Shown here: one piece after another, positions 10,964 through 34,009 of the stretch
How positions within the stretch are numbered: the stretch's first letter is position 1
Layout of the letters: every line of letters starts with the position of its first letter
Origin: Candidatus Marinacidobacterales bacterium
Lineage (GTDB): Bacteria; Acidobacteriota; Vicinamibacteria; Marinacidobacterales; SMYC01
Reading direction: 5' to 3'
DNA: 64,000 nt
Assembly (NCBI GenBank): GCA_965197495.1
Contig: OZ240210.1
Span: 2,876,671 to 2,940,670, forward strand
Translations under genes and position numbers: made by a program
Notes under the pieces: model-generated
Databases searched by the model: none
What the model was told of the DNA's origin: nothing
Seen by the model: the letters and a program-made list of their open reading frames with translations, nothing else

Positions 10964-11149
10964 CCCTTTGCAAAGAAGTCGCTTACGCTCAATTTAGCGC
11001 GCGGCGAAGGTCGTGAGCCCTATTTTGGCTGTAATTTAATGCACCGCAAAGTCTTAGCGTTATCTCACCAACACTTAACCCTAATCGCAAATAAACGTCA
11101 CCGTGTCTGAGGTCTTTGGCCCCGTGAATAGCACCTTTTCCAGGTTCTG

Positions 11150-11943
11150 CATACACCGTGCAGAATCACCTATAGTGGCGGCGAGCGGGTGCCCCAGCAC
11201 GAGCTTCTCGCCTGCGCCCAGTGCGGCTGTTTCGCGTTTTCGTGCTTCGAAGATTTTGCGATTAGGGTTAATAGCAGAAGCACCTCTTCGTTACGATCGA
11301 GGTCTGGTCTCGGCTCTGGCCATCGACGGTGACGGGAAGGCGAAGCTATCGGAACACTCACGCTCTGTTTCGCGACCTTTCGAAGCGGATGAATTTCGAG
11401 CGTCTTCCCTTGATCGTCACGGATGGATTCGAATTCTACCGGAAGGTCATCCGTCGCTTCTTCGGGCCAGCGTGTCTCTACGGCCAGGTCCTCAAGACGC
11501 GCAGGAACGATCGTATCATCAAGGTCGAACGCAGAGCGCTGCACGGAGCCGCGTGGCGATTTGATGACGCGCTCAATAACTCCGAGGACTCCTCGACATT
11601 GAACACGTCGTTCATCGAGCGGTTGAATCTGACGATCCGGCAAAGCTCAGCATACCTTTCGAGACGAACACTTTCCCACGCTCGCTCGACGGAGAGGCTC
11701 GATGAGCACCTGGAGTTGCTCCGTTGCTATTACAATTTCGTCCGACCGCACGGAGCTCTGAAGTTCGGACGTGAGATCCGAACTCCAGCCATGCAAGCCG
11801 GTCTGACCATTCGACGGCTCACCTTTCGAGACATCTTCTTGGCGACGACGATTCCTTTGTGGTTGCAGATCGAGGTTTTCCTACTCAGTTGGGCGCGCAA
11901 CCCGGTCTCTTCCGAACCTGTACCACTGCCCGCAGCCGCGTAG
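11150..11943 (+). pseudogene. IS1-family transposase remnant, with an InsB-like C-terminal part at 11329-11943 and a possible InsA-like zinc-finger segment upstream in another frame
   Basis: LIVTDGFEFYRKVI...IERLNLTIRQSSAYLSRRTLSHARS...LELLRCYYNFVRPHGALKFG parallels the IS1 InsB C-terminus, and an upstream frame has HELLACAQCGCFAFSCFEDF. Confidence 0.5.
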
Positions 11944-12155
11944 CAACATATCTGGACTCCTCAATCAACACCTTTCTCAAAAAAGTCTTCCTCAGAGCTG
12001 CTCGTCCAAATCGGTGACGAGTGGGTCAGACTGCAAACATATCTACGGCCTCAGTGAGGAGCGTCTTGGGTGCTCCGGGCCATGACGGGAAATCCGCGCG
12101 CGAGGAGCCAATCACTTTGAGCGACCTCTGAGGGCCAGTGTTGCTATCGGCTTGA

Positions 12156-12217
12156 CCCCGTCCTGTGCCAAAACTCGGCCCTTTTGAAATAGACCATAAA
12201 TCAGCAGCTTAGTGTCT
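12156..12217 (+). repeat. Solo IS481-like terminal inverted repeat (62 bp) with no element body
   Basis: ccccgtcctgtgccaaaactcggcccttttgaaatagaccataaatcagcagcttagtgtct matches the IS481-like IR and is then followed by unrelated sequence. Confidence 0.7.
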
Positions 12218-12229
12218 ATGGTGCGCTCC

Positions 12230-12345
12230 CGTGAACGGCTTGGCGGTAGTAGACCCGCCGTCCCTTCTGTGCCGCGGCGATCGCGAGGCTGATCGCGAGA
12301 TGGGTCTTACCGACGCCGGGCGGTCCCAACAAAACGCTCGGGTGG
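12230..12345 (-). pseudogene. IstB-like (IS21 helper ATPase) P-loop fragment
   Basis: The minus-strand translation HPSVLLGPPGVGKTHLAISLAIAAAQKGRRVYYRQAVHG is a Walker A plus an IstB signature, with only about 38 codons present. Confidence 0.5.
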
Positions 12346-12640
12346 CCTCTTTTCCGACGCTGCACGGCCCGGTCAGCGCCCTCTCCCCAATCTGGCGCAA
12401 ACGTGGCACTCGAAAATCGAGATTAGAGACCAATACCGAAAATGAGGCCTGTTCAGGCCTTATAGCGCGTCTCTGGTGACACCTAATCTTGAAAAACCAC
12501 GCCAACCGCGCGGAAAATCTCATCCGTCTCTGCAGTGCCACAATTGGCCAGACTGGGTGGCGGATGGTGCAGGTTGGAGCTATCCGGTCTCGGCAAAAGG
12601 TGGTCCAGCTTTTGGCGGAAATCCTCAAACAGAAAAGCCA
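12340..12640 (+). repeat. About 300-bp repeat D; second copy at 24610-24910 and a partial copy at 30886-30935
   Basis: ctcgggtggcctcttttccg...gcgcaaacgtggcactcgaaaatcgagattagagac...ccaaccgcgcggaaaatctcatccgtctctgcagtgccacaattgg...ggtggtccagcttttggcg recurs at about 88%. Confidence 0.7.
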
Positions 12641-14015: not shown

Positions 14016-14886
14016 TCAACGATGCCGAGTGCAGACGACCCGGACCGAGCGTAGCGCTTGTAGTGCCTCGGTTGCGGACAGGTCGAGTTCGGCGACCTTG
14101 AGCTTTTTCTCAAGAGCCCGATGCACAAGGAAGGCCAGCGTAGCTACGAAAAGATGTGCCTCCACACGCTCATCGGTCTGGTGGTAAACGGGACGCATCT
14201 CAATGACATCCTTAAGGCATGAGAAGGCTCGCTCGACCTCGTTTAGGTCCTTGTAAAGACGCACGGCGTCGACCGGAGAGAGGTTTTGCTCCTCGGTTTG
14301 AATAACGTACTTTCTGTTCTTTGCGGGCATGCAGCTGGTCGAGCGTTCGGTACCATTGCTTGAGTTGGCGAAACTCCACGCGAACCCGCGGGGAGCGACT
14401 CGCTCGCCGTTCCCCATCATCGCGCCACTGCGGCACCCACCGCCGCCCCTGCCGGTCGCAGACGAAGTCGGTCTCGAGCCAGCGCGCCAGACCGTGCTCG
14501 CTTGACGGAGCACATAGCCGGTTGGCGACCAGCACCAAAGCTCGCTCGCTTAGCGCCACTCCGTCCCGCTTGCCGCGGCCCCCGAGCCGGTCGAGAATCT
14601 GCTCCAGCCCGAACTCGCGCCACAGCGTCGCCGTCACCAGCATCGGACCCCAATCCCACGCGTCTGCCCCCGCGACCTGCTCGGCTGCTCGCTCGGTGTC
14701 GGCCGGTTCACCGGCCCCAAGCAACCGATTGAGGGAGTCGAGATTGGCAACTAGGAGATCCTTGCGCCCCAAGTTGCACACTACGCGTTGCTTCGGCTTG
14801 CCGTGCTCCCGATACGACTCGACCAGGCGGACATACCCATGTTGAACCCCTTTGCCGCCTGCGGCCCGAACGATGCGGAAGAACAT
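14016..14886 (-). pseudogene. Internally deleted IS1634-family transposase, with its N-terminus at 14212-14886 and its C-terminus at 14016-14513 in another frame
   Basis: The N-terminus MFFRIVRAAGGKGVQHGYVRLVESYREHGKPKQRVVCNLGRKDLL and the C-terminus LYKDLNEVERAFSCLKDVIEMRPVYHQTDERVEAHLFVATLAFLV match IS1634 termini, but the central DDE region is missing. Confidence 0.6.
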
Positions 14887-15224
14887 AACCTGTCCTCACG
14901 CATACTACATATCATTGTCCACGATTACAACGTATTAATGGCGCTCAAAGCACAATCTCTGTCTCTACGTTTTGGGCGAAATTCAACCCCCGTTCCTTTG
15001 AATTCAGTCACTTACGAGCGTTAGGGTGCTCATAAAGGGTAAACATGGGTTAGTACCGGAACACAGCCCGTCTAAAAAGCGACGCACCGAGGCGAGCTCT
15101 TGCACCCGTATCCCGAACAGCGACTGCGCGTCATGACCCGAGGTAGGAGCCCAGTGCGTTAGCAGCGCTCGCTGGGATCTGTGCAGGGGGCCGCCCGTAA
15201 GGGCGGTCCCTACCGCGAACGACG

Positions 15225-15262
15225 TCGAGCTCGACGTACTACTTGCACCATACGGGTTCCCC
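15225..15262 (+). repeat. 37-bp direct repeat, copy 1, containing the 12-bp palindrome GTCGAGCTCGAC; copy 2 is at 16987-17023
   Basis: (a/g)tgtcgagctcgacgtacta(c/t)ttgcaccatacgggtt is present twice in the same orientation, 1.76 kb apart, bracketing the HNH nuclease gene. Confidence 0.75.
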
Positions 15263-15559
15263 CGCTGATGCTCAGAGTGCCGACTATAATAATGATGATG
15301 GACTCGCAACCGACCTCGCATCGCCCGACAGGGACCGCAACCCGCTGACCCGGGTCTCGTGCTGGGCGCGCGGGCCGAGGTCGCGGCGCCCATGTGCACA
15401 AGCGCCTGCTTACAAGTTTTTGGAATTGCGGGTCTTGAGTTCGTTTGTGTTCTTGGACACGACGGGTTCACGCGTGTGTCTGCCCGCTGCCGACGTGACT
15501 GATACAATGGGCCGATGCGACCCAACTCGCCGAGCTAGTAGCCAAGGACAATCGATTCA

Positions 15560-16486
15560 ATGACTGATAACGACCGTGATACCCAGATGCGAATGGCGGC
15601 TTTTGAGCACGTTCGAGAGCTGCACGAAGTCCACGATCAGCTGACCGCAAACGAGTTGAAACCAGGTTTTGTTTTCGACGGCGAGCGCATCCCTCTCATC
15701 AATCCGCAACGCGGCATTTTCAAGCCGCAGCAGATGCGGTTCTTGCTTTCGATCAAGACCGTATTCCCGAGACCGGGCAGCAAAATCTGGTACGACGATC
15801 AGCGCGAAGTTCACCGCCAAATATTTGAGGGTGACGAAACGGTGGATTACGCATTCATGGGAAGAAATCCAGAGGCTGCTGACAATCGCTGGCTGCGCCA
15901 AGCGTTCGAGAACCAAATACCGGTGATCTATTTTCTTGGCATCGCGCCCGGCCGCTACCAAGCTATGCTGCCAGCATTCGTTGCAGGGTGGGACGCCGAG
16001 GCATTAAAGGCGCGCGTTGCGTTTGGAGTGCTCGGTCAAGAAGCGCTGGCGCCACCGAAGAACGTCCTGGAACGGCGCTATGCTCTGCGTTCGGTCAAGC
16101 AACGATTGCACCAGGCATCGTTTCGAGAAGCTATCATCAGTGCCTATGACGGCCGCTGCGCACTATCGAGGATACCCGAACCACTGCTACTGGACGCGGC
16201 GCATATTGTTGCGGACAAGGATGAACGGCTTGGTCAACCGGTGATCCCCAACGGAATCCCACTATCGAAAATCCATCATGCTGCCTTCGACGCGCATTTG
16301 ATTGGCATTGACCCGGACTACCGCTTGCATGTCTCTGATCGACTGCTCGGCCAGAGCGACGGCCCCATGCTCGAAGCATTAAAACGGCTCAACGGTGGAA
16401 CCATTCACCTACCCAGCCGCGTCAAGGACCGACCGGATCGAGACCGGCTTGCGCTACGCTTCGACCGCTTCAAGGCGGTGGCGTGA
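15560..16486 (+). CDS. HNH-family nuclease of the putative restriction/type-IV class, with an HNH_2-like C-terminal domain and an N-terminal domain of unknown function
   Basis: RLHQASFREAIISAYDGRCALS...LLDAAHIVADKDERLGQPVIPNGIPLSKIHHAAFDAHLIGIDPDYRL fits the HNH_2 pattern (Q..FR..V...Y...CA..G...LE.aHI.p......N.l.L....H..FD...). Confidence 0.7.
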   Translation: MTDNDRDTQMRMAAFEHVRELHEVHDQLTANELKPGFVFDGERIPLINPQRGIFKPQQMRFLLSIKTVFPRPGSKIWYDDQREVHRQIFEGDETVDYAFMGRNPEAADNRWLRQAFENQIPVIYFLGIAPGRYQAMLPAFVAGWDAEALKARVAFGVLGQEALAPPKNVLERRYALRSVKQRLHQASFREAIISAYDGRCALSRIPEPLLLDAAHIVADKDERLGQPVIPNGIPLSKIHHAAFDAHLIGIDPDYRLHVSDRLLGQSDGPMLEALKRLNGGTIHLPSRVKDRPDRDRLALRFDRFKAVA

Positions 16487-16689
16487 GATGCCCGCCGTCG
16501 CTCAATGAGTAAGGTCAACTTGAACCAAGGTAAAGATGGTGCGGCGGTTGGCAGTCGACTTGATTGGGAGAGGAATACGAGAGGCTGAAGGCGCTGGAGA
16601 GCGCCAGTGCGGGAGAAAAAGACGAGAGGACAGGAAAGACCGATAGCGAATGATTGCGGACCACCTGATCGGCATCGAGCAGTTCGAGG

Positions 16690-16760
16690 CGGACCTCTCT
16701 CCACCTTACCCTTGGTCTTCGCACGATAAGGCCGACACGCACGGGCTCGGAACTGCCAGT
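16690..16760 (-). pseudogene. rve-integrase (IS21 IstA-like) fragment
   Basis: Only the short relic FAHHWQFRARACRPYRAKTKGKVER (..HYGF.PR.C.P..P.TKGKVE pattern) is present. Confidence 0.35.
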
Positions 16761-16986
16761 GATGCGCGAAGCGAACAAACTCCGGATTCTCGGCTAACGG
16801 GCCCAGCGTCGAGTGCCGCGAGCGACTCGGCGGCCTACTATCGTGCAGCTGCCTGAGTAGATACGTTCGAGTGCCGTCCAAGCCGCCCCGTGGGTTTCGT
16901 ATCGTCGTGGCATTGACCTCGGCTGGCGGCCCATCGAATCCTCGCTTCGCGCAGATCCGGTCATTGACCCTCCACAGGCCGATGTC

Positions 16987-17023
16987 GAGCTCGACGTACT
17001 ATTTGCACCATACGGGTTATTCG
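16987..17023 (+). repeat. 37-bp direct repeat, copy 2
   Basis: This is the repeat described under 15225-15262. Confidence 0.75.
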
Positions 17024-17104
17024 CCGGACGGCGGGGCGCGCCAGTTGGACGGAACGGATGGTCTGGAGGAGAGGTCTGCTCGGGGTCGCCTATCGCAGAA
17101 CCGC

Positions 17105-17413
17105 GTCCTGTGCCAAAACTCAGCCCTTTTGAAATAGACCATAAATCAGCAGCTTAGCGACTGGGCCAAGGGCCCTTAGGCTCTACAGTTACCCAAAACC
17201 CGCGGTCGACATTCGAGAGCCGCGGCCGTTTCACCGAACGGCGGAGGACGGCGAGCTGCTGCCGAAGAGCGACATTGTCGAGAGCCAGCTCGCGACGAGC
17301 CTTGAAGGCGGAGATGAGAGCGTGAACAAACGACGAAATCAAGCAGGCATGGTGCCGGCAGACCGGAGACTAATCAAGTTTGGGGCGCCCGGATGAATAA
17401 ATAGAAGGCACAG
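17105..17413 (-). mobile_element. MITE-like element, copy 2 (309 bp)
   Basis: It is over 97% identical to 6706-7007 and has the same embedded 62-codon ORF (17154-17342). Confidence 0.7.
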
Positions 17414-17469
17414 ACCGATTTGCGCTATCATGAATCAACCCAAGGCCATCGACCCGACACAATTTCCTC

Positions 17470-18189
17470 ATGAGTATGCTGCAGTCTTTTCAATGGTTGA
17501 CGCTTGCTATCACCGCGGTCGGGGTCGTGGGTTGCAGTTCCTCCATGTCCCCATCCTCGACCACGGAACCCGAGTCATCTCCACCGGCCGAGACTGCTGA
17601 ACCCGAGGCGAGAGCCGAGTACACCGTCACTTTCGATGCTTCCTGGAGTAAATCGACCCATCCCGAAGACTTTCCTCCCAACCCACACTTCTCCGGATTG
17701 ATCGGTGGCACGCACAACGACGACATTCGCTTCTGGATGCCCGGAAGGAAGGCGTCGGATGGGATCAAAGCCATGGCCGAAAGGGGTCTTAAAACCCCTC
17801 TCAACGAAGAGATTCGAGCGGCTCGCGACGAGGGAACGGCGGACAGGCTTCTTTCAGGTGATGGCATTCCTCGATCGCCTTCAAGCGTGTCTCTCGATTT
17901 CGCGATCCGGCGCGATTACACTCTGGTGACGTTGGTCTCGATGGTGGCACCGAGCCCCGATTGGTTCACCGGGGTTTCGGCCTTGAGCCTTCTCGAAGGA
18001 GGCCAATGGGTCGAGGAACTAACAGTGGAGCTCTTTGCTTACGACGCAGGCACGGACAGCGGAACGACTTACAACTCCGCCAACGATCCCACCTCACCTC
18101 GCGAGTCGATCCAGCGAATCGACGGACGTCCGCTTGCGGTTGGCGGCCAAGTCGCTCCGGTGGGGACCTTCACCTTTACTAGGCGCTAG
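17470..18189 (+). CDS. Spondin_N-domain lipoprotein
   Basis: It has a lipoprotein signal (LTLAITAVGVVGC) followed by YTVTFDASWSKSTHPEDFPPNPHFSGLIGGTHN, which is characteristic of the bacterial spondin_N domain. Confidence 0.6.
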   Translation: MSMLQSFQWLTLAITAVGVVGCSSSMSPSSTTEPESSPPAETAEPEARAEYTVTFDASWSKSTHPEDFPPNPHFSGLIGGTHNDDIRFWMPGRKASDGIKAMAERGLKTPLNEEIRAARDEGTADRLLSGDGIPRSPSSVSLDFAIRRDYTLVTLVSMVAPSPDWFTGVSALSLLEGGQWVEELTVELFAYDAGTDSGTTYNSANDPTSPRESIQRIDGRPLAVGGQVAPVGTFTFTRR

Positions 18190-18337
18190 GCTCACGCTTG
18201 GTGCGAGCGGGCCAGTCGGCAGGGACCGGTTTCATCGGACGACAAAACGCTGCAATCGTCGTGGTTTTGCTCATACCGACGGCGCAACTCCTCCACCGTT
18301 CGATCGATGTCGTCTCCAGCAACGCAGCAGAGTCCAT

Positions 18338-18400
18338 GCCCGTCGTGTCCAAAAACACAAACGAACTCAAGACCCACGCGCCGGGACGTTTCGGATTAGA
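18338..18400 (+). repeat. Short repeat A copy (cgtcgtgtccaaaaacacaaacgaactcaagacc...cgtttcggat)
   Basis: It is one of at least eight copies; the others are at 5662-5720, 15434-15466 (rc), 24323-24381, 33318-33375, 34010-34140 (rc, long form), 36803-36930 (long form) and 36962-37005. Confidence 0.7.
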
Positions 18401-18502
18401 GGTGTCTAGGCTTGGTTGTGCCTTCTATTTATTCATCCGCCAGCCCCATGGGTCGGAAGTCAGCCCTGCGGCGCGAAATACCCTGGATTCTGCGCGGATT
18501 CA

Positions 18503-18788
18503 TTTGAAATAGACCATAAATCAGCAGCTTAGCGACTGGGCCAAGGGCCCTTAGGCTCTACAGTTACCCAAAAACCCGCGGTCGACGTTCGAGAGCTGCG
18601 GCCGTTTCACCGAACGGCGGAGGACAGCGAGCTGCTGCCGAAGAGCGACATTGTCGAGAGCCAGCTCGCGACGAGCCTTGAAGGCGGAGATGAGAGCGCG
18701 AACAAACGACGAAATCAAGCAGGCATGGTGCCGGCAGACCGGAGACTAATCAAGTTTGGGGCCCGGATGAATAAATAGAAGGTACAGG
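18503..18788 (-). mobile_element. MITE-like element, copy 3, truncated at the left end; it lies next to an inverted fragment of the MITE right end at 18395-18440
   Basis: It aligns with 6728-7007, and ccttctatttattcatccgc at 18421 is the reverse complement of the MITE right end. Confidence 0.6.
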
Positions 18789-19229
18789 GCACTCAGGGCA
18801 CTACTCCCAGCGCGCATTCAAAGGTTGGAAGGGTGACGACGAGGTGATCGTCCCATGGAAAGGTTAACTAGTTCCTGTCCAGAAACACCATAACTTGTGG
18901 TGTGCGACAGGCCTACCGAAGATGTGGGTATTATACGGTTTCGGTAGGGAACTTCGTAGGGTTGAGAGCGAATGAAAATCTTGGACGAAACGAGAGGCGA
19001 ATCGTCAGGAATCCAAGGCTATGGGAGCGGAAGAGTAATAGTTATTATCTTGATAGATGTCTCGCCATCACCAGTAGATTGCAGGTGATGATGGAACCCC
19101 ATACGTACGATTTAAAAGAAGGCAATGAGCGCCATGTGCATCGGTCGAGACCAAAGACTCGTTTCAAGAACGAAATGACGCCTTCGATCCCGCAGCGAAA
19201 TCGCCGCAGGCGTTGATAGACCCAGGAAC

Positions 19230-19396
19230 TCTTGACCATATCGGGGCGCGTCCCAGTTCACAAGCTTGCCGGCGGTGAGCGAGATCCAGACGGTCAGGCT
19301 CCCGCGGTTGCGTAGACCCGCCTCATATTCACGCCAATTCCTCACGCGATAGGCCTTCTTCACATACTTCCGCTGAGTGCGTTTGAAAATGCTCAT
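19230..19396 (-). pseudogene. IS5-family transposase N-terminal fragment (about 55 codons)
   Basis: MSIFKRTQRKYVKKAYRVRNWREYEAGLRNRGSLTVWIS parallels the N-terminus of the intact IS5-family transposase at 37923 (KKYHVRNWAEYNEGLRRRGDLTVWF); downstream of it the sequence is unrelated. Confidence 0.6.
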
Positions 19397-19526
19397 GGGG
19401 AACCTCGAATCCGCGAGTACAGGACAATTGTGGACCTAGATCGCGAGTTGTGCACCAAGGCAGGGCGTTGTCGCCTTCGCCGCCGCCGTCGTCCCATTCG
19501 ACCGCGAACCAGTCCTGATCGTCCGC

Positions 19527-19616
19527 ACTTACGGCCCTTGGCCCGGCCGCAAACACGGACACTAAGCTGCTGATTTATGGTCTATTTAAGAGGGCCGAGT
19601 TTTGGCACAGGACGGG
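19527..19616 (-). repeat. Solo IS481-like terminal IR (about 90 bp) abutting the stop codon of the CotH gene
   Basis: ggcccttggcccggccgcaaacacggacactaagctgctgatttatggtctatttaagagggccgagttttggcacaggacggg is the IR, and no transposase lies to its left. Confidence 0.7.
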
Positions 19617-19621
19617 CTCGG

Positions 19622-22015
19622 TTAATCTCGTTCCCAAGTCCCGTATTCGTTCAGAGCACTCCATTCGTCGCCCCGCCGTGAACGTCCCTTGAGATTAGGA
19701 GAGAAAGGAACCGTCGAAACGGCTTCGCTGAAACTGTGTGCCGTGGGGTTCCGTGGGTCGCTTCCATCGAGGGTGTAGTAGACCTTTTCCGCTCCCGCCG
19801 GGCGACGGATGGTGATGCTGTCAGAAGCTCGCTCGAACCCCGGCGGGTCGATGGTAGGATAGTAACCATGGTTTCGAAGTGCCCGAATGAACTTTTCGAC
19901 ATTCCCGTCCATCAAGCCTAGAACGTAGTCCCGCGCTCGCTTCCAATGCACATCCCGCGTGCGGGGACGATTCTCCCGTCCAGGGGCTGCGTCGCCCCAC
20001 CGGGCCGACTCACAAAGCATCGCCGGCTCCACATAGTCCGCTAGCCTCCGAAAATTGGTTTGGTTTACATGGTCTGCAAGGGGGCCGCCATCGTAGCAAG
20101 CACGATAGACGTGATCCGCGAACTCCAGCCGGAACTCTGGGCTGTCCGCCAAAGCCATCCATAGTTGGTGTAACGCGGACGTTCCGCCGGACACGAAACT
20201 TGGCGGAACCCAAGCCCCCGCGTGCCCGTATTTATGAGAGTAGAGCCCGTAGGTTATCTCCGCATCCCAGCAGAAATACAGTCCGGCACCAGGAGGGTGA
20301 ATCCGAATCCCTCCGTACCAATTTTGCTTTCCCCAATCTCCCATGCCGGAAAACCAATTCAGCAGGATGTAGTCGCTGAACTGGGCCGTATTCAATAGGG
20401 TTTTCATCTCCTGGTACTTTGCGGGCTCCGAGAGATCATTGTCACGCGCATAACGGTAGACGGTGATATACCAGCGCGGGTGGTTCGGCTTGCCGACTAC
20501 GCCAGAATGGTTGATAGCAAACCAGTCAGCCGAGTCACCACCATAGTACGAAGCGAGAAAACGCCGGTCCGGACGCTCCACCGCGTTGTATACGCCCCAG
20601 TAAATCCCGTTCAGGTAGAGATGCACAAAAATGCCGCGCGCGGCGTTATCGCTCAAAGAAAGCTGCGAGTCCCGAACGTGTTGGTCGCGGACATAGACCG
20701 CCAACTCGCTGATATCGCCTCTTCTCGACCAGTTTTCTTGCCCACCTGCCCGCAGAACGATGGTGTTGAACTCCTTCACTGCAGATTCGGCATGGTGCAC
20801 GGCGCTCTCGAAAAAGGGGTATCTCAACATTCCCGGACCGAAGTCTTTGCTGAAGACTAGGCGGAACGATCGCTTTTCCTCGGGAAACGTCTGACTATGC
20901 GCTCTAATTCCGCAATCGACCTGGAAGCCCTCGAAGTCCGAAAACTTGCTCGGGTAGAGGAGCTCAACCGAGGCGGGACGGGTTGGTGGACCCTTATCAA
21001 TGTAGAGCCCGTAGCTCTCATTAAAGAGGTGGTCCCCATCCATGACGATGGAGAGGGTGGGAATCGATGTCAGTCCTTCCACGAACTCCAGCTGGTTGCT
21101 CGTATTCACAACATCGGGATCGATCTCGATGTCGAGATCTGCGTACGGAGCCATATTGGAGGAGCGAAACGGGGCCGGATAATCGAATGGCAGAGCCGCC
21201 TGCTCCTTCACCGTGGTCGGAAATATATAGGTATGGGTGTCGACGTTCGTGCTCCTCGCACCAGCTTTGTACGCTATGGCCCGAAGGACGGTCGTTTTAG
21301 CCACAAGAACCTTGTTGCCGACGATTCCATGACTCACGCTCGGCTTACTGCCGTCGGTGGTATAGACGATCGTTGCGCCGGGAGTGGCGGTGGTGAGGAT
21401 CACTTCGAAAGGGGTCTCATAGAAGCCGCGGTCGTGGCTGAACTTCGTATCGCCTACTGAGTGCGTCCGGCCGGTTCGGCGATGCCAATCATTGAAGAAC
21501 TCGACCGATTGCCCAACCGGTTGTGCAGGGGCGCTCGCAAGAAGAACCGGCTCTCCCCAAACCGGAACCAGTGACTGCCGATGCACCGCGCCCGAGGCGT
21601 CCAGCACAGGCCGTGCCGTGAAGCTCAGCGAGACCGTTCTCCCCTCCCACGGAGTGAGATCAATCATGCGGTCGTTCCAACGATTCCCCTCCTGTGCAGC
21701 AAGGGTCTCGCGAAACGCGCGGCTCCGCTTGTCATCGACGTCGATCTCGATCAGGAACTCTGTCTCGGGCAGACCGGCACTGGGTGTGCCTAATACGGCC
21801 ATCGAGAATTGGAGCACGGCGTTCTGCGGTACCTTTAGCGGGGACACCCACGTCGAGCCGTCCAACGCTGTTCGGGACTTTCCTTCCAACTCCACTTCCC
21901 TGGAAGGCTGAGAAGGATCGAGAAGGGAAACAGGGCGCGTTCTCGGTAAGTCGCTGCAAGCCGCTGCGGATGCTAGGAGCATCAGGACGACCAGCGTGTC
22001 GGTTCGTCTCCCCAT
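19622..22015 (-). CDS. CotH-family protein (CotH kinase-like fold) with a lipoprotein-type signal peptide and a chitobiase/hexosaminidase-C-like beta domain
   Basis: The likely start is MGRRTDTLVVLMLLASAAACSDL; the ORF-track start at 22417 adds 134 low-quality codons. It contains the CotH motifs VHLYLNGIYWGVYNAVE, FSDYILLNWFSGMGDWGKQNWYGGIRIHPPGAGLYFCWDAE and ATIVYTTDGSKPS. Confidence 0.65.
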   Translation of the reverse strand: MGRRTDTLVVLMLLASAAACSDLPRTRPVSLLDPSQPSREVELEGKSRTALDGSTWVSPLKVPQNAVLQFSMAVLGTPSAGLPETEFLIEIDVDDKRSRAFRETLAAQEGNRWNDRMIDLTPWEGRTVSLSFTARPVLDASGAVHRQSLVPVWGEPVLLASAPAQPVGQSVEFFNDWHRRTGRTHSVGDTKFSHDRGFYETPFEVILTTATPGATIVYTTDGSKPSVSHGIVGNKVLVAKTTVLRAIAYKAGARSTNVDTHTYIFPTTVKEQAALPFDYPAPFRSSNMAPYADLDIEIDPDVVNTSNQLEFVEGLTSIPTLSIVMDGDHLFNESYGLYIDKGPPTRPASVELLYPSKFSDFEGFQVDCGIRAHSQTFPEEKRSFRLVFSKDFGPGMLRYPFFESAVHHAESAVKEFNTIVLRAGGQENWSRRGDISELAVYVRDQHVRDSQLSLSDNAARGIFVHLYLNGIYWGVYNAVERPDRRFLASYYGGDSADWFAINHSGVVGKPNHPRWYITVYRYARDNDLSEPAKYQEMKTLLNTAQFSDYILLNWFSGMGDWGKQNWYGGIRIHPPGAGLYFCWDAEITYGLYSHKYGHAGAWVPPSFVSGGTSALHQLWMALADSPEFRLEFADHVYRACYDGGPLADHVNQTNFRRLADYVEPAMLCESARWGDAAPGRENRPRTRDVHWKRARDYVLGLMDGNVEKFIRALRNHGYYPTIDPPGFERASDSITIRRPAGAEKVYYTLDGSDPRNPTAHSFSEAVSTVPFSPNLKGRSRRGDEWSALNEYGTWERD

Positions 22016-22602
22016 CAAGTGTTGCGAGCTTATCAAACGCGCGTTTCTAAATGCTAGGCCAAGGGCGTGGCAAAGAGCAAAAAAGAGCGGGCTATTTTGC
22101 GAGTTTTGCAAGTCACTCCAAGAGGCCGGCCCTCGGAGGGGTTCCGTCGCATGCGCGGGGGAGATAGACCGGGTGGCGCCGACAGGCGCAAAGAAGCCAT
22201 AGGGGGCGTAACGTCCGACCGTTGTCGACGCCGGACGCGGCCCTGCTTGCTGGCCTCCCAGCTGGCCGGCGTGGACAGCGAGACCGCTGCTGTCGATCAA
22301 GATGTGCAACGGCGTCTTCTGCTTGTCCTGCGCGTACGGGGACCCCGAATCGCCGGCCACAACGTCACCCTCCCAGGGTATTGGTGTCACCTCGTTCGAA
22401 TGGGCGAGGATCTCCACGACCGCCTAGGGGCAGCCCTGGTGTTCAGAACAATAGGCCGGATATTCGAAAACAATCGCAAGAGCGAGCCTCTCCAACATTC
22501 ATAAGACGCCGGTGGCATCGTCAGGTCGACCGGTACGGAAAATCCGACGTGGCAGGTCTAAACCGCGCAATCAACGCTGGATCGACTTTTTGCGGAGCAC
22601 AG

Positions 22603-23582
22603 TTTACTGGGGCGTATATAACGCGGTGGAGCGTCCGGATCGGCGTTTTCTCGCTTCGTACTATGGTGGTGACTCGGCTGACTGGTTTGCTATCAACCAT
22701 TCCGGCGTAGTCGGCAAGTCGAACCACCCGCGCTGGTCTGTCACCATGTACCGTTATGCGCGTAAGCATGACCTCTCGGAGCCCGTAAAGTACCGGGAGA
22801 TGAAAACCCTATTGAATACAGCCCAGTTCAGCGACTACATCCTGCTGAATTGGTTTTCCGGCATGGGGGATTGGGGGCGAAAGAATTGGTACGGAGGGAT
22901 TCGGATTCACCCTCCCGGTGCCGGACTGTATTTCTGCTGGGATTCGGAGATGACCTACGGACTCCTCTATAATAAAGGGCACGCGGGGGCTTGGGTTCCG
23001 CCCGAGTTCGTGTCGGGCGGAACGTCCGTGCTACACCAACTATGGATGGCCTTGGCGGATAGCCCAGAGTTCCGGCTGGAGTTCGCGGATCGCGTCTACC
23101 GCGCCTGCTACAATGGCGGTCCCCTCGCGGACCATGTAAACCAAACCAATTTTCGAAAGCTAGCGGACTACGTGGAAGCGGCGATGTTTTGTGAGTCTGC
23201 CCGCTGGGGCGACGCGGGCCACGGAAGGGAGAATCGTCCCAGCACGCGGGATGTGCATTGGAAGCGGGCGCGGGACTATGTTCTAGATTTGATGGACGGA
23301 AACGTCGAAAGGTTCATTCGAGCACTTCGGGACCATGATTACTATCCCACGCTCGACCCGCCGGTGTTCGAACGAGCTTCTAACAGCATCACTATCCGAC
23401 GCCCGGTGGGAGCGGAAAGGGTCTACTACACCCTTGATGGAAGTGACCCACGAAACTCCACGGCACACAGTTTCAGCGAAGCCGTTTCGACGGTTCCTTT
23501 CTCTCCCAATCTCAAGGGACGTTCAAGGCGTGGCGACGAGTGGAGTGCATTGAACGAATACGAGACTTGGGAACGAGATTAA
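22603..23582 (+). pseudogene. Inverted partial paralog (C-terminal about 326 codons) of the CotH gene; no start codon and the 5' region is unrelated
   Basis: It is about 90% aa-identical to the C-terminal third of 19622-22015 (YWGVYNAVERPDRRFLASYYGG ... NEYETWERD*), and its stop is likewise followed by CCGAGCC plus an IS481-like IR. Confidence 0.7.
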
Positions 23583-23590
23583 CCGAGCCG

Positions 23591-23765
23591 GTCCTGTGCC
23601 AAAACTCGGCCCTTTTGAAATAGACCACAAATCAGCAGCTTAGTGTCTGTGTTTGCGACCGAGCCAAGGGGCGTGGGCCTTACAATCGTCTGGCCAAAGG
23701 GTGTTATCTTCAGATCTATGATGACGTACCACGTGCCATTCCTACTGCTCGTTCTGGCTGGTGAC
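23591..23765 (+). repeat. IS481-like left end (IR plus the first about 25 codons of the transposase), with no body beyond about 23765
   Basis: gtcctgtgccaaaactcggcccttttgaaatagaccacaaatcagcagcttag...ATGATGACGTACCACGTGCCATTCCTACTGCTCGTTCTGGCTGG is followed by unrelated sequence. Confidence 0.65.
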
Positions 23766-24609
23766 CTGACCTGTGCTCCGCAAAAAGTCGATCCGGCGTT
23801 GATTGCGCGTTTTAGACCTGCCATGCTCGGCTGCTTTGTGCCGGTCGACCCGACGACGCCACCTGCGTCTTAGGAACGAGGAGAGGCTCGCTCTTGCAAC
23901 TGTTTTCCAATATCCGGTCTATTGTTCTGGATGTCAATGGCAACCGAAAATTGCACACTTTTGTGGAGGGCTTCCACGCGAAGGTGACGCTCTTGCGGTG
24001 GTTGCGCTTGTCGGTGTTGGGTTGGGCGGAGGGAGCGTAGCGATCGGAGTCCAACCCAACACGCGTCGCAGATTCGCAGGACATGGCTGTCAGGACATGG
24101 CTGTCAGGGCGCGGGTCTCTCGCGACCTTGATCGGACGCGGACCGTATCAGGTTCTGGTGCTCCCGCATCCGGTTGTGCCTTCCATTTATTCATCCGCGC
24201 GCACGGAACTTGATTAGTCTCAGGCTGTGGCCGGGGAAGAACCGCAGGCTATTGTTCTGGCGCCAGGGCTGACCCTAGGCGGTGGTGGAGATCCTCGCCT
24301 ATTCGAACGAGGTGACACCAATGCCGTCCTGTCCAAAAACACAAACGAACTCGAGACTGGCGCGCCGGGCCGTTTCGATCGTCATCGCCCCGTAGCGAGC
24401 CCCAGATCTGGGGCGTGTCGGAGGCGATGTCGGCGATTCGGGTTCCCCGTACGCGCAGGGAAAACACCGTCCAGAAACGGGATGCCATGCTCCCGGGCGA
24501 AGACCCTGGATCTGGGCCTGGGGCAAGATGGAAATCCAGTAGGCCAGGGCCGCACCTGGACCAGAACTGCTAGGCGAGCTACGCTGCGGTATCCCCGGCC
24601 TCGATTCTG

Positions 24610-24910
24610 GGCCTCTCGGGTGGCCTCTTTTCCGCCGCCGCACAGCCCGGTCAGCGCCCGTTCTCCCCTTTAGCGCAAACGTGGCACTCGAAAATCGAGA
24701 TTAGAGACGAATACCGAAAATGAGGCTCGTTCGGCCTTTCTAGCGCGTCTCTGGTGCCACCTACCCCTGCAAAACCCCGCCAACCGCGCGGAAAATCTCA
24801 TCCGTCTCTGCAGTGCCACAATTGGGCAGACTGGGTGGCGGATGGTGCAGGTTGGCGCTATCCGGTCTCGGCAAAAGGTGGTCCAGCTTTTGGCGTAAAT
24901 CCTCAGAAAG
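24610..24910 (+). repeat. Repeat D, copy 2
   Basis: This is the alignment described under 12340-12640. Confidence 0.7.
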
Positions 24911-24955
24911 AAGATGATCGATCACGGAGGTGTCACGAGTAGCACGTGACGGGTT

Positions 24956-25579
24956 CTATTCGGGCGTGTCAGGGAATTGGACGGGGTCGCGTTCAACGGC
25001 CGCGTGATAGACCTTAATGCCAAGTTCGCGGGTGTCACGCGAGCCCACGATCAGATTCGCCGGCACGAACGTCCGGTCCACGGTGATCTGAATCTCGGCC
25101 CTGTCCCCATTGCCCAGCGCCGCTGCGGGAAGGGGAATACGGCGGCGGTGCCGACCGGAAGCCTCTGCGACTAATAACTGCAGCAGTTGGTCGCCGACGC
25201 TGACCGTGACCGCCTGCGGTGCGCTTGCGGCGTAGTCGAGGGAGAATGTTGCGTCTGCTTTCGGGTTCAAAAACGACAGCGTGGCGGTCTGATGGGTCCA
25301 TCGCCACGTCGATTCCGGAGCCGTTTCCTCCGGGTACCAGCCGCTGGTGTAGGCCAGTGCAAAGGGGAGGCGCCTTTTGTCCACGGTCGTGACCAGCCAC
25401 CCATCGTAGTCGGCGTAGGCACAACACCCCGCAATGATCGGATGTTCTTCGCCAGACGTTCGCGGCCAGCGCGTCAACTCCCAGAGTCCCCAGACGAGCG
25501 ACGCGGAAGCGGCACCGCTGCCGATCCCCATCACGAATGTTCGTCGTGAGATGCGGCGTGTCATATCAGGCACCTTCAC
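24956..25579 (-). CDS. Tat-signal small subunit of the gluconate-2-dehydrogenase subunit-3 type, partner of the adjacent GMC oxidoreductase
   Basis: It has a twin-arginine leader RRISRRTFVMGIGSGAASASL, is 207 aa long, and its start overlaps the GMC stop by 4 nt. Confidence 0.5.
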   Translation of the reverse strand: MKVPDMTRRISRRTFVMGIGSGAASASLVWGLWELTRWPRTSGEEHPIIAGCCAYADYDGWLVTTVDKRRLPFALAYTSGWYPEETAPESTWRWTHQTATLSFLNPKADATFSLDYAASAPQAVTVSVGDQLLQLLVAEASGRHRRRIPLPAAALGNGDRAEIQITVDRTFVPANLIVGSRDTRELGIKVYHAAVERDPVQFPDTPE

Positions 25580-26964
25580 CGTGACATCGCGAGAGTGTCA
25601 GCCAGTCGCAGCGACAGCGCGACAATCGTCAGCGTTGGGTTCGCGTACCCTCCGGTGGGAAACACAGATGACCCAGCCATGAACAGGTTGCGGTACCCGT
25701 GCACCCGGCAGTCTCGATCGACCACCGAAGTCGACCGACTCGTGCCCATTCTGGTCGTCCCCATGATGTGCCCGCCACCGTCCGCCAGCTGGTACAGGCG
25801 GTCGTTGTGAATGCGTACCCGGCCCTTCTTCGACTCGATCAGCGATTCTCCGAGGAGCCGCAGCATCGTCTCCGCGTTGAGGAAGTCCCCGGCGTTGAAG
25901 ATACATCGGACGCCGGGTCGGTAGAACCCTGCGGCATCGCGTTCGCCGGTCAGAAACACACGGTTACTGGCAGAGGGCAACATTTCAGATCGTACAGTGC
26001 TGGTGTAGTGATAGAAGGACTTCCCATGCTCCCTGGACAGATACTCGACCATTGGATGATCGGTGGTTTGGTCCTGACAGTCCACACTGCACCCGAATAG
26101 CCCGTGCTGCATCGTCAGGGCATCGTCCGGCACCATCGCATGGGTGGCTCCCCCAAAGGCAGCGGGCCTAGGTTGCAGGTTTAGGTCTTCGTCAAGCACG
26201 AGTTCGGCCACACGCCTGAAATGCGGATGCTCCATCAGGAACTTCCCTGCCTGGTCGCTCTCGTTGCCGACCGGGACCGCACCGTCCGAGCGAGGCTGAA
26301 GTAGCAGTTGCGCGTTGCTGATGCCGCCGCCCGCGAGGACGACCGGCTGTGCGGGATCGATGGCAAGCTGGTGCGTGGTGCCTGAAGAATGATGAAAATA
26401 CGTCAGCGTCCGAACCGCGGAGCGCGACGTATCGGCGTCGAGGCCAACCACCGAGGACGCGAGCGCAACGTGAATCGTCGGGGACTTCTCCAGTACATCG
26501 AAATACTTGAGGGCAAAGCGGGTCGGAGCAGCTCTTGAGAACGGCCGGTAGACGAATCCCGGCACCAAGGGCGTCTCGACATCGACGATGGAGGCGTCCC
26601 TGTCCAGGACTTCAGCCGCGCGCCGATAGTACGGCACCAGCTCGGGGCGAGTAATCGGCCAGCGAACGCCGACGGCCGGGTTATCGAAATCCCGCTCGCG
26701 CAGCGTGACGCACCAGCCTGTCCAAACCTTTGAGGTGCCACCGAGTGTGCGGATAGAGTGTCTATCCCACCAGCCGTCCCGGAGGTGTCCGTAGTTGATG
26801 GCGTTTGGCATGTCGGCCCGCACGTCGATTGCAGTTCCAGACTCAAAGAGCAGTACCTTCTTATTTGCCTTGGCCAGCTCCAAGGCGAGCGTGATACCCG
26901 CCGGGCCAGAGCCGATCACATAGCAGTCGTACATCTGGCGGAGCGTGCCGGAAGTCAGCCACAT
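25576..26964 (-). CDS. GMC-family FAD-dependent oxidoreductase
   Basis: It has an N-terminal Rossmann YDCYVIGSGPAGITLALELA, a GGGISNAQLLLQ segment, and the C-terminal GMC signature GTTRMG...VVD...RVHGYRNLFMAGSSVFPTGGYANPTLTIVALSLRLA. Confidence 0.8.
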   Translation of the reverse strand: MWLTSGTLRQMYDCYVIGSGPAGITLALELAKANKKVLLFESGTAIDVRADMPNAINYGHLRDGWWDRHSIRTLGGTSKVWTGWCVTLRERDFDNPAVGVRWPITRPELVPYYRRAAEVLDRDASIVDVETPLVPGFVYRPFSRAAPTRFALKYFDVLEKSPTIHVALASSVVGLDADTSRSAVRTLTYFHHSSGTTHQLAIDPAQPVVLAGGGISNAQLLLQPRSDGAVPVGNESDQAGKFLMEHPHFRRVAELVLDEDLNLQPRPAAFGGATHAMVPDDALTMQHGLFGCSVDCQDQTTDHPMVEYLSREHGKSFYHYTSTVRSEMLPSASNRVFLTGERDAAGFYRPGVRCIFNAGDFLNAETMLRLLGESLIESKKGRVRIHNDRLYQLADGGGHIMGTTRMGTSRSTSVVDRDCRVHGYRNLFMAGSSVFPTGGYANPTLTIVALSLRLADTLAMSR

Positions 26965-27477
26965 TACACCCGGTAGAATACACTACGGCGAACCTGACAC
27001 CATGAACGCTCCTGACACCCAGCGGGATGAAACGCCGTGCCGGCGTGGTGGAAAGCGTACGTACCGGAGACAGCAAATCACCACCCGTCCCGAAATAGAC
27101 ATCGGGTTAGAAGCTGGGTAACTTCACAAGAGGCGCGCACTGCGGTTGGTTTGCTCCGCTTCCTAAATATTCCGCAAAGAACCTAACCCATCCCAAATCC
27201 AGGTGGAGATTCCAGACTCGGCCCACCTGGGGCGTCTCGCCTTGGTTCTTGGGTGAACGATGTATTGGTGGCTCGCTCCTCAATTTTCGGGGCCGCACGA
27301 AGGCTCGTCGACTCACCACAGGCTTGCTGTGCGGGCAGCAATTGCTAGTGAACGTAGAAAATAGCTCTCTGTACGAAAGTTGCTAAATCGGGACAGATCC
27401 GAAAAAGGCGACCTGCTGTTTTGCCCCGCCGCTCGGATCTGCTACCCTTCAATCACTCGGTAGAACTGGTCTCGATG

Positions 27478-29205: not shown

Positions 29206-29452
29206 GTCGTGCCGATGTCGTATTGCGCCTGGTAGCGCTCGATGTTCCGCCATAAATCGGCAAGCCCGCAGTGCAAGCCAACGGGCGTGGTGCTGTTGTG
29301 AATCTCGGTAATTTGACAGCAATGGCACCGCCCGCGTGGGCGGAGGTCATCGGGGAGTGACCGAAATCGTTCGTTCACTCGAAAGTACCCCATGGACTCA
29401 TCTCCTCGGCTCCACGCCCGCGTGCGGCGTCTCACCGCGCGGCAGGCACGCA

Positions 29453-30885
29453 CCCCGTCCTGTGCCAAAACTCGGCCCTTTTGAAATAGGCCATAAATCA
29501 GCAGCTTAGTGTCTGTGTTTGCGACCGGACCAAGGGCCGTAGGCTTTACAATCGTCTGGCCCGAGGGTGTTATCTTCAGCTCCATGATGACGTACCACGT
29601 GCAATTCCTACTGCTCGTTCTAGCTGGCTGGGTCAACCGCCAGCAGCAGGATGTGATCGACTACCAGCAAGAGGAGAACCGTGTGCTCCGAGCCGGGCTT
29701 CGGGGCAAGCGTCTCAGGCTCTCGGACGACGAGCGGCGCAGGCTCGCGGTCAAGGCCCAGGCTTTGGGCCGCGAGGCGCTGGCCCAGATTGCGTCCGTTG
29801 CCACACCCGCTACGCTTCTGCGTTGGTACCGCTGCCTCATCGCAGCCAAGTACGATGGCAGCAAGAACCGGAGTCCAGGCCGACCTCCGACGGCGAAGGA
29901 CATCCGTGAGCTCATTGTGCGCGTGGCGCGGGAGAACCCGACGTGGGGATATACGCGCCTGCGAGGCGCACTCAAGAACCTAGGACATGAACTCGGACGC
30001 AACACTATCAAGAGGATCCTCGCCGAGCACGGTATCGCTCCTGCGCCGGAGCGGGGCAAGAGCATGTCGTGGAGCACCTTCATCAAGGCTCATTGGGGCG
30101 CCATCGCTGCGACAGACCTGTTCACCGTCGAGGTTGTGAACCCGTTCGGGCTCGTCCGCTACCATGTCCTGTTTGTCATCGATATCGCCACTCGCTGCGT
30201 GTGCATCGGTGGGATAACGTCGGACCCCAACGGGGAGTGGATGAAGCAGGTAGCAAGAAACCTCACTGACATGTGGGATGGTTTCCTCCTTGGCAAGCGA
30301 TACCTCATCCACGACCGGGACCCGCTATTCACCGAGGCAGTACGTGGGCTGTTGAGAGATTCAGGCGTGAAGCCCCTTCGCCTTCCCGCTAATAGTCCGA
30401 ACCTGAACGCATATGCGGAAAGATTCGTTCTCTCCATACGTCGAGAGTGTCTCGACCGCTTCGTACCTCTCAGTGAGCGACACCTGCGCACAGCGGTAAC
30501 CGAATACGTAGTGCACTATCACACAGAACGGAACCACCAAGGTCTCGGCAACGAGCTCCTCACACCTCTGCCGGCAAGCGCGAATGACGCTGGCCCCATC
30601 GTGTCGCGAGAGCGACTTGGGGGCATTCTCAACTACTACTACCGTGCCGCGTAGATGGTCGCCGGCGACGGTAGCCCCTCGGCGGGCTCGACCGGCGTAG
30701 CGTGGAACAGCTTCAGGAACATGCTTCGATATTCGCTCTCGACTAGGTGGTCATCTGCATGGTGACGACCCGCCCGCCCAAGACGATTGTAAAGCCCACG
30801 GCCCTTGGCCCGGTCGCAAACACAGACACTAAGTTGCTGATTTATGGCCTATTTCAAAAGGGCCGAGTTTTGGCACAGGACGGGG
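29453..30885 (+). mobile_element. IS481-like element copy 2, intact (1433 bp), with about 110-bp terminal IRs beginning CCCCGTCCTGTGCC
   Basis: It has a complete single transposase ORF, and its IRs are near-perfect inverted copies over about 110 bp (e.g. ...cagcagcttagtgtctgtgtttgcgaccgg / rc of ...ccggtcgcaaacacagacactaagttgctg). Confidence 0.85.
29578..30654 (+). CDS. IS481-family DDE transposase with an integrase core domain
   Basis: It has an HTH N-terminus ([25 protein letters not shown]), a DDE core (LFVIDIATR...IHDRD...FTE) and an rve C-terminus ([17 protein letters not shown]). The start may be 29509 or the MMTYH Met at 29578. Confidence 0.85.
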
Positions 30886-32993: not shown

Positions 32994-33440
32994 AATAGCC
33001 TATGTATCAATGTGTATCAAATCATAAAAGGCTTTAGACATGCCTACATATTGCAACCCAAAATTAGCCTCTCGGCGTCCCTAAAGACGCGTAATCATTG
33101 GGGATTCACACTGTCAGTGGGTTCATTCGACCAAGGAACTTCAGTCTAAAACAAAGAAGTGACTCGACCTCGGCGGGGACCTTCGGTGTTATCTAAAATG
33201 GCTGGTGCTCGACGATTGAATGCCGGTCCAGGTCGGACTGTACCCTTCGCAGATGATGGACATGAGAGGGGCAATTTTTACAGTTTTTACAGTATCTCCC
33301 AGGAGGCGGTGTGCGCTCCCGTCGTGTCCAAAAACACAAACGAACTCAAGCCCCGCGCACCGGGCCTTCGGTCACTACCCTCCCCATTCTCCGAAACAAG
33401 AACTCTGAATCCGTAGACCTGAGATGCCCGTCCCTGTGAA

Positions 33441-33890: not shown

Positions 33891-34009
33891 TCGCCCTCCC
33901 TTACCCCTCGCCCGCTCTTCCGAGCGCCTGTCTTCGAGTTCTGCTCGCGAGGTCTGCCATCCGTAAGAAAGAAGATTGCGTAACGCTGGATCGACTTTTT
34001 GCGGAGCAC

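Follow-up and report, generated by a model that had tools for sequence, protein, structure and literature searches.

When a complete gene lies beside an inverted partial copy of itself and both copies run into the same mobile-element end, the question arises whether one was copied in place from the other. Such a locus is found in the window analysed here, a stretch of 64,000 nucleotides (nt) of contig OZ240210.1 from a Candidatus Marinacidobacterales bacterium, in which an intact CotH-family gene on the minus strand faces a 326-codon piece of a CotH gene on the plus strand. An earlier, sequence-only reading took the pair for an inverted duplication of the gene together with its junction to an insertion sequence (IS). 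Our analysis leads to a different answer: the partial copy is probably the remnant of a distinct CotH paralog, which came to lie next to an intact one as IS elements inserted in turn and rearranged the DNA of an IS-dense island. Unless a locus is named with them, coordinates are positions in the window, and L001 to L019 denote the CotH loci of related genomes.

The inverted repeat formed by the full gene and the C-terminal copy was confirmed. Arm A (19531-20604, minus strand) and arm B (22603-23674, plus strand) are 90.35% identical in an alignment of 1,078 nt that contains a single 3-nt indel (19531-20604 against 23674-22603, E = 0), and the longest identical runs common to both arms are 62, 49 and 47 nt. 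Each arm contains the last 326 CotH codons, then TAA-CCGAGCC and then the end of one and the same IS, designated IS-A: arm A comprises CotH codons 471-797, CCGAGCC and an IS-A end, and arm B comprises the CotH fragment, CCGAGCC and an IS-A end. The succession of stop codon, CCGAGCC and IS end reported for both copies in the sequence-only reading thus held, as did its description of the IS pieces themselves (a solo end at 19531-19616, and an end with a transposase start at 23588-23762/70). That reading had also placed the roughly 1-kb arms around a 600-bp spacer. The arm length was right, but the spacer between the arms is 1,998 nt (20605-22602), made up of 470 codons of the full gene plus 587 nt; the 587 bp represent only the gap between the ATG of the full gene and the start of the fragment. 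A second inverted repeat, absent from the earlier description, pairs 22320-22602 with 23771-24466 and brackets the partial CotH copy. Repeated DNA accounts for 72% of the 17-25 kb region and 33% of 1-40 kb, compared with 2% of 40-64 kb.

The intact gene (19622-22015, minus strand) encodes 797 amino acids and is collinear over its full length with homologues in related genomes. Its product scores 41.7 bits against the Pfam CotH profile (cut-off, 23.8 bits) and also has CHB_HEX_C_1 and Fn3_assoc domains; judged by eye, it possibly carries an N-terminal signal or lipoprotein sequence. No record of this exact CotH protein was present in the protein collections searched. The start context of the gene, ATGGGGAGACGA, is kept among CotH paralogs, and its native 5' flank (22016-22111, minus strand), a type-1 upstream region in the sense given below, is 95% identical to that of L001 and 88% identical to that of L008, with shorter matches also in L014 and L017. 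The CotH family (PF08757) includes the CotH protein of Bacillus subtilis, a spore-coat Ser/Thr kinase (PMC7821199). The window gene resembles the family in its above-threshold CotH domain, whereas it differs in its length of 797 amino acids, its presumably non-sporulating acidobacterial host, its possible export signals and its CHB_HEX_C_1/Fn3_assoc domains.

The partial copy (22603-23582, plus strand) holds codons 471-797 and the stop codon of a different, mosaic paralog. It is 88.7% identical to the full gene at the amino acid level over 326 aligned codons, has no start of its own and contains no internal stop, which agrees with the approximately 90% identity and the missing start noted in the sequence-only reading. 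Among the protein collections, its best matches are 88% identical. Its match to the Pfam CotH profile is borderline (24.0 bits against the cut-off of 23.8) and covers profile positions 78-262 only. Since the start codon, the signal sequence, the N-terminal domains and the first ~80 positions of the CotH profile are all missing, we infer that the fragment is a non-functional pseudogene. Changes specific to the fragment number 5 synonymous to 7 non-synonymous, compared with 16 to 7 in the full gene; the difference is not significant (p = 0.15) and hints at recent relaxation in the fragment. The small number of fragment-specific substitutions (~12) fits a recent truncation and would explain why the frame is still open.

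The relationship between the two copies was assessed against the CotH genes of the nearest relatives, which are metagenome-assembled genomes of Candidatus Marinacidobacterales (Acidobacteriota, Vicinamibacteria). Nine related genomes contained 17 CotH loci, with up to five paralogs or fragments each, at 81-90% amino acid identity to the window gene. Two types of flank are distinguished among them. The type-1 flank (5' ...TTGATAAGCTCGCAACACTTG-ATG, 3' TAACCGAGCCC...) is carried by the window gene, L001, L008, L012 and L018, and the type-2 flank (5' ...CAGCTGGCCCTCGCAACGTAATG-ATG, 3' TAACCGTACAGCGATTCG...) by L003, L005, L006, L009 and L011. In the C-terminal 983 nt, L001 (92.5%) and L013 (91.6%) are the nearest to the full gene, and L009 (93.3%) followed by L006 and L004 (both 92.8%) are the nearest to the fragment, while the full gene and the fragment are only 90.3% identical to each other. 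The sequence-only reading had proposed comparing the two copies with their homologues as a check on the duplication; in the neighbour-joining tree of this region they fall in different clades.

The fragment is itself a mosaic. It is of type 1 from nt 0 to 430, of type 2 from ~430 to 850, and again of type 1 from ~880 through its end and into the flank, as determined by sliding windows and 44 sites diagnostic for type 1 or type 2 (Fisher p = 0.007 and 0.004). The synonymous divergence of the two arms varies in step with this mosaic, at 0.146, 0.318 and 0.21 by segment. For the arms as a whole, synonymous divergence (dS) is 0.275 and the ratio of non-synonymous to synonymous divergence (dN/dS) is 0.21, showing that the differences accrued under purifying selection, while both sequences belonged to functional genes. 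Sliding windows revealed no recent conversion tract between the two window arms. Judged by these comparisons, the two arms are not sister duplicates.

The edges of the fragment point to the agents that may have shaped it. Both breakpoints, 22602|22603 and 23770|23771, coincide with the terminal motif of a second IS, IS-X. This end motif, CTGTGCTCCGCAAAAAGTCGATCC, was found at 27 termini in the window and the related loci, each with a different outside flank. At the 5' edge of the fragment (22602|22603), the CotH paralog is cut at codon 470/471 by the exact IS-X terminus: an IS-X end fragment (22377-22602, minus strand) terminates, with the motif read on the minus strand, precisely at 22602, and its 22437-22602 portion matches IS-X ends in more than 12 loci, all ending at 22601/22602. 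On the far side, a second IS-X end fragment, inverted relative to the first (23771-24325, plus strand), has its terminus at 23771 and is interrupted by a 319-nt insert (23930-24248) that contains an end of the miniature inverted-repeat transposable element (MITE) type at 24171-24224. The IS-X ends that lie downstream of CotH in L001 and L008 are 93% and 90% identical, respectively, to this right-hand end, and its similarity to the L001 end suggests that it is an old resident. Metagenome scans for the IS-X/CotH junction (either arm type) and for the CotH/IS-A junction returned no match.

Both IS-X pieces represent the same IS-X end and break off at one and the same position inside the element (22377 and 24325), where each borders on a piece of another repeated element, D. 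One D piece is a 29-nt fragment (22327-22355, minus strand), inverted relative to 24431-24459. The other spans ~520-550 nt (24324-24872, plus strand; end CCGTCCTGTCCAAAAACAC...) next to the truncated IS-X, and is 86% identical over ~550 nt to L002 12593-13110 and L016 15517-16039. The IS-X pieces are 240 nt or less in length and have no transposase, and their arms are 87-91% identical; the CotH fragment and its IS-A stub (22603-23770) are therefore bracketed by an 87-91% inverted repeat of IS debris. A third IS, IS-C, is a 1.09-kb element of the IS5 family (transposase, 236 bits against the NCBIfam IS5 cut-off of 140). An internal IS-C fragment of 67-72 nt lies at 22259-22330 and is 98.5-100% identical to internal positions in IS-C copies of six loci, and the 3'-terminal ~221 nt of IS-C lie at 19242-19464, just beyond the left IS-A stub, with the terminus at ~19462-19464 and 98-99% identity to the ends of full IS-C copies in L002, L003, L006, L008, L010 and L014. 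The 67-nt segment 22259-22325, which is 100% conserved across genomes, corresponds to this IS5-family fragment; scans of 17-26 kb with transfer RNA and Rfam models gave no match. The 587-nt spacer is accordingly a mosaic, in which only 22016-22111 is native CotH flank and the rest includes IS-C, D and IS-X pieces. We also considered whether a single IS-C had been split by insertion of the CotH segment, and this was ruled out, the two IS-C pieces being in the wrong order for a simple split.

The IS ends that follow the two CotH stops both belong to IS-A, of which two full copies are present in the window. The sequence-only reading was right in seeing the locus as shaped by IS activity. The truncated end that abuts the stop region of the intact gene (19531-19619, minus strand) retains 86-88 nt of the ~104-107-nt terminal repeat and is 93% identical to both ends of the full copies at 3724-5157 and 29450-30884. 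The other piece (23583-23770, plus strand) consists of CCGAGCC and the IS-A left end, with the full repeat and the first 17 transposase codons (ATG at 23718); it is truncated at ~23762-23770 and is 92% identical to 29454-29627 and 3728-3901.

The anatomy of the locus is shown, with IS termini at its breakpoints, and so are the separate placement of the two copies in the phylogeny, the mosaic make-up of the fragment and the signature of selection. On this footing it seems probable that two different paralogs met here. The minus-strand gene is one intact type-1 paralog of a multi-copy, recombining CotH family, and the plus-strand 326-codon piece would be the 3' remnant of another paralog, whose ends and flank were of type 1 around a central type-2 patch from gene conversion. 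An IS-X element ending at codon 470/471 would have truncated this second paralog, the IS-A element after its stop would itself have been cut by the second, inverted IS-X end, and the fragment and the intact gene would have come to face each other through IS insertions and IS-mediated rearrangement. The order of these events is an inference. The picture is similar to the gene wreckage of other IS-rich islands in its fragments ending at IS termini, nested IS, solo repeats, MITE-like derivatives and a high repeat density confined to the island. Nothing essential differs, except that IS-A, IS-X, IS-C, D and the host lineage are uncharacterised in the literature searched. The locus would then be an ordinary product of IS activity, with no new genetic device, and its importance lies mainly in annotation: the open reading frame (ORF) at 22603-23582 should be annotated as an IS-truncated pseudogene and the surrounding "intergenic" DNA as nested IS fragments.

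Several observations weigh against this explanation. The window lacks the N-terminal half of the truncated paralog. The IS-A insertion nucleotide is identical in both window copies and is shared by no other paralog, and the simplest reading of this is a junction that was inherited from a common ancestor or passed on by conversion. The two IS-A fragments differ by 8 substitutions and 1 indel in 87 nt, and this divergence is not significantly below the synonymous divergence of the type-1 segment (p = 0.09 as against a pS of 0.146), which is compatible with one origin for the 3' ends and junctions of both copies. In addition, the [D-X] bracket, an inverted repeat that reaches past the IS-X fragment, shows by its layout that some duplication or recombination event took place.

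The junction reads TAACCGAGCC-C-GTCCTGTGCC beside the full gene; beside the fragment the middle base is G (TAACCGAGCC-G-GTCCTGTGCC). Since CCGAGCC(C) is present without IS-A in L001, L008, L012 and L018, CCGAGCC is the native type-1 flank (TAACCGAGCCCACTAGATGG...), which L012 and L018 continue for at least 62 nt (CCGAGCCCACTAGATGGTACTG...), and only the IS-A insertion point remains common to both arms. Compared with the consensus of 73 IS-A ends, the two stubs have no derived change in common; this star-like pattern fits both common descent and separate insertion. In the final ~200 nt, ~5 sites separate the full gene from L001, with its uninterrupted native flank, and ~19 separate it from the fragment, which suggests that IS-A inserted next to the intact gene after its split from L001. 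The junction site, GAG|CCC, partly matches the IS-A flank preference for GAC before CCC. IS ends recur in the first 8-60 nt behind CotH stops: in L004 an IS-A end lies at +59, in L002 a related end lies at +7, and in L001 the end of a different IS lies at ~+17. IS-A-type ends within 60 nt of the stop occur twice in the window and once in L004, in addition to the related end in L002; the probability of at least 3 in 14 is ~4e-5 under uniform placement, although the two window copies may not be independent. The sequence-only reading had concluded from the identical junction that the junction itself was duplicated. Common origin is not shown by it, given the lack of a shared derived change and the closeness of the full gene to L001. 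As far as the sequences allow, independent targeting at a favoured post-stop site, old conversion and old inheritance are all possible sources of the shared junction, and none of the three rescues the view that the adjacent gene was copied in place.

An old IS-associated inverted duplication of the 3' third of this gene and its IS-A junction, followed by ~10% divergence, is for these reasons improbable. It would account for the identical TAACCGAGCC-IS-A junction, for the contiguity of the arms from codon 471 through 86 nt of IS-A, and for an IS-A fragment divergence roughly comparable to the synonymous divergence of the type-1 segment. However, each arm is nearer to other paralogs (the full gene to L001/L013, the fragment to L009/L006/L004) than to its supposed twin, the fragment holds a type-2 tract missing from the full gene, and a dN/dS of 0.21 reflects divergence in expressed full-length genes, not in a silent fragment. 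Its inner repeat edge is moreover an IS-X terminus, the IS-A fragments share no derived change, and the last 200 nt of the full gene lie closer to an L001 locus without IS-A than to the fragment. The sequence-only reading had added that the event was old or that one arm was imported, and "imported" comes closer to the truth than its principal claim. A composite-transposon origin, in which the fragment and its IS-A piece were cargo of a now degenerate element bounded by inverted IS-X and moved upstream of the intact gene, is unlikely, though somewhat less so. The same IS-X end faces the cargo on both sides in the classic inverted layout, the CotH gene of L002 is bracketed by IS-A-type ends on both sides, and 99%-identical CotH units stand in unrelated contexts in three genomes. 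On the other hand, both IS-X pieces are short and lack a transposase, the homology runs on into element D, so that the bracket is more than a pair of simple IS-X insertions, identity between the X arms is only 87-91%, and the right IS-X end is more similar to that downstream of CotH in L001 (93%), suggesting an old resident and not a piece of an incoming unit. Two intact IS copies and a target duplication outside them, the hallmarks of such a transposon, were not found, and no target-site duplication was identified.

That the assembly had joined separate loci through common repeats is the least probable account. The region is 72% repeats and the window probably derives from a metagenome-assembled genome, in which such regions are error-prone, but arms diverged by 10% would not collapse, every breakpoint lies at a defined IS terminus and not inside a shared repeat, and comparable IS-truncated CotH copies occur in independent assemblies. 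Separately, a single palindromic duplication and an IS-X duplicative inversion were tried as candidates and rejected: neither agrees with the order in which the mirrored pieces lie (a c ... d x | c a x d), and identity between the X arms is only 87-91%.

The facing arrangement also raises the question of whether the locus could invert. The sequence-only reading had suggested that the structure can promote inversion of the promoter region between the arms. The geometry does permit inversion, but the result would not be a promoter flip, since inversion would swap the C-termini in frame; a promoter and terminator scan of 19.4-24 kb, which covers the spacer in which promoters had been expected, gave nothing above shuffled expectation. 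When 20605-22602 was flipped in silico, an intact hybrid ORF of 796 amino acids was obtained, its 470 N-terminal codons running in frame into the C-terminus of the fragment; in the flipped isomer the N-terminus would meet arm B at ...GTATACGCCCCAGTAAA|CTGTGCTCCGC... If the arms recombined, in-frame C-terminal variants with 37 changed residues would result, and no sign was seen that such inversion takes place or is selected.

It is conceivable, though very improbable, that the fragment is a silent C-terminal cassette kept for inversion or conversion that exchanges the C-terminal 326 residues (37 differences) of a putatively exported CotH protein, with the IS-scattered CotH fragments serving as a reservoir for mosaic variation. 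If true, the locus would belong to a system in Acidobacteriota that varies a surface protein by recombination. The open frame of the fragment, without a stop in 326 codons, the intact hybrid ORF of the in-silico flip and the identical runs of up to 62 nt in the arms are all compatible with it, and the paralog family is clearly mosaic, so conversion does occur. A 62-nt identical run exceeds the typical minimal pairing length for RecA recombination. Nevertheless, the architecture is absent from all 19 related loci, there is no invertase or recombinase nearby, the cassette edges are IS termini and debris and not conserved recombination sites, no recent conversion tract links the two arms, and with only ~12 fragment-specific substitutions even a pseudogene would be expected to keep its frame open by chance.

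Phase-variable hsdS-type loci, shufflons and intragenic invertons come with a recombinase of their own or with short repeats that are conserved, and their arrangement is kept from strain to strain. The present locus is like such inverted-cassette switches, among which intragenic invertons served as a comparison system (bioRxiv 10.1101/2023.03.11.532203), only in its geometry, in that a full gene faces an inverted, promoterless 3' copy and inversion would exchange C-termini in frame. It differs in having no recombinase, edges of IS debris and an arrangement seen in no relative. No serine or tyrosine recombinase was detected by Pfam and NCBIfam among the 28 ORFs scanned, including those of at least 150 amino acids near the locus; the check near the locus covered the scanned ORFs within ~7 kb, and only DDE (Asp-Asp-Glu) transposases and unrelated genes were seen among the 28 ORFs. 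Neither an adjacent site-specific recombinase nor an architecture conserved in relatives, the two marks of a programmed switch, was thus observed. Rare RecA-dependent inversion or gene conversion between the arms is possible in view of the identical runs, and would be incidental rather than programmed.

The related genomes place the remnant-paralog explanation in a wider setting. CotH copies broken by mobile elements are common in them: L004 is in three pieces (14436-19623, two insertions), L013 and L016 are in two, and L010, L014, L015 and L017 are truncated. The CotH gene of L019 (1799-7380) is interrupted by a group II intron-type reverse transcriptase and an IS256 element, and that of L018 is embedded among IS3, IS21 and IS1-type genes. 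An inverted partial copy beside a full CotH gene was found in none of the 19 related loci (L001-L019). CotH thus appears in Ca. Marinacidobacterales as a multi-copy, mosaic, IS-hit paralog family with gene-sized units in unrelated contexts. A search of the literature for this lineage yielded no papers.

The window genes at 24.5-29.1 kb show partial synteny with the genes around a CotH paralog in L007, which makes the position of CotH beside these genes an older neighbourhood. In L007, 6932-7745 and 13682-15726 are homologues of window 24551-25362 and 24968-27007. This pair flanks a block that holds the CotH paralog and a 594-amino-acid gene, and ~395 bp are present on both sides of the block; this duplication is a rearrangement signature at the syntenic locus. 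Further, the type-2 CotH segments of L003, L006 and L011 (around 9930-12453), from three species-level genomes, are 99.1-99.4% identical over 2.5-2.9 kb and have no flanking sequence in common. Outside CotH, loci of different genomes had no block of more than 1.6 kb in common, except for two blocks of 2.0 and 1.8 kb between L007 and the window. It may be that the gene-sized CotH unit is itself mobile or that it was exchanged not long ago.

Four mobile elements are newly delineated in Ca. Marinacidobacterales by this analysis: IS-A with its MITE-like derivatives, IS-X, IS-C and D. The window contains 11 IS-A ends. The reference full-length IS-A (29450-30884, plus strand; start sequence CCCGTCCTGTGCC) is 1,436 bp long, with unusually long terminal inverted repeats of ~104-107 nt and an intact transposase of 356 amino acids (ATG at 29584). 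The second full copy (3724-5157) is 98.7% identical to it, and its transposase is frameshifted. The transposase is encoded by one ORF of 356-381 amino acids with HTH_32/HTH_21 and an rve_3 DDE core (copy 29450-30884).

IS481 elements have short terminal inverted repeats and make a short direct target duplication, as described in ISfinder. The sequence-only reading had called the element IS481-like. IS481 is indeed the best NCBIfam match (NF033577), but the score of 100.1 bits is far below the cut-off of 224, and IS3 is nearly equal (81 bits against 160). IS-A is like the IS481 family in its size of 1.44 kb, its single transposase ORF and its HTH_32/HTH_21 and rve_3 domains, and differs in its low score, the near-equal IS3 match, its ~104-107-nt repeats and the lack of an evident target duplication. 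In terms of the features that define IS481, it has the single DDE ORF without a programmed frameshift, and lacks the curated score and the short repeats with target duplication. IS-A is accordingly best described, by its profile scores, as an rve-type DDE element nearest IS481 and IS3 and below the curated thresholds of both. The flanks of 73 IS-A ends revealed a strong consensus of GAC before the CCCGTCC of the element, and no direct repeats were found among these ends, including four complete copies. The flanks of both full copies in the window likewise have no direct repeat, which is weak evidence because the copies may have recombined.

MITE-like IS-A derivatives of ~306-313 bp lie at 6701-7006, 17101-17413 and 18503-18788; their first ~63 nt are the IS-A terminal repeat and their other end is ...CGGATGAATAAATAGAAGGCAC. 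Two of them form direct repeats that bracket a Spondin_N-domain gene (17470-18189). A 287-nt copy of an internal IS-A segment is present at 3217-3503, just upstream of the copy at 3724-5157.

Other repeats are dispersed through the window. A family with the sequence CCGTCGTGTCCAAAAACACAAACGAACTC... occurs at eight window sites, including 34011-34135 and 36804-36927; the other six are 5659-5717, 15428-15466, 18338-18418, 24324-24377, 33318-33366 and 36959-37001. Two inverted 125-nt copies of this family bracket a TonB-dependent receptor gene (34182-36824), and an IS-X terminus at 33982-34011 abuts one of them. A 444-nt repeat pairs 6064-6507 with 13233-12793 in inverted orientation (92% identity), and a 300-nt repeat pairs 12337-12634 with 24615-24912 in direct orientation (91%). 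Elsewhere in the window, a gene with an Nmad3 (nucleotide-modification-associated) domain is located at 1888-2733, a gene with an HNH_2 endonuclease domain at 15560-16483, and a transfer-messenger RNA with the tag ADQELALAA at 62422-62771.

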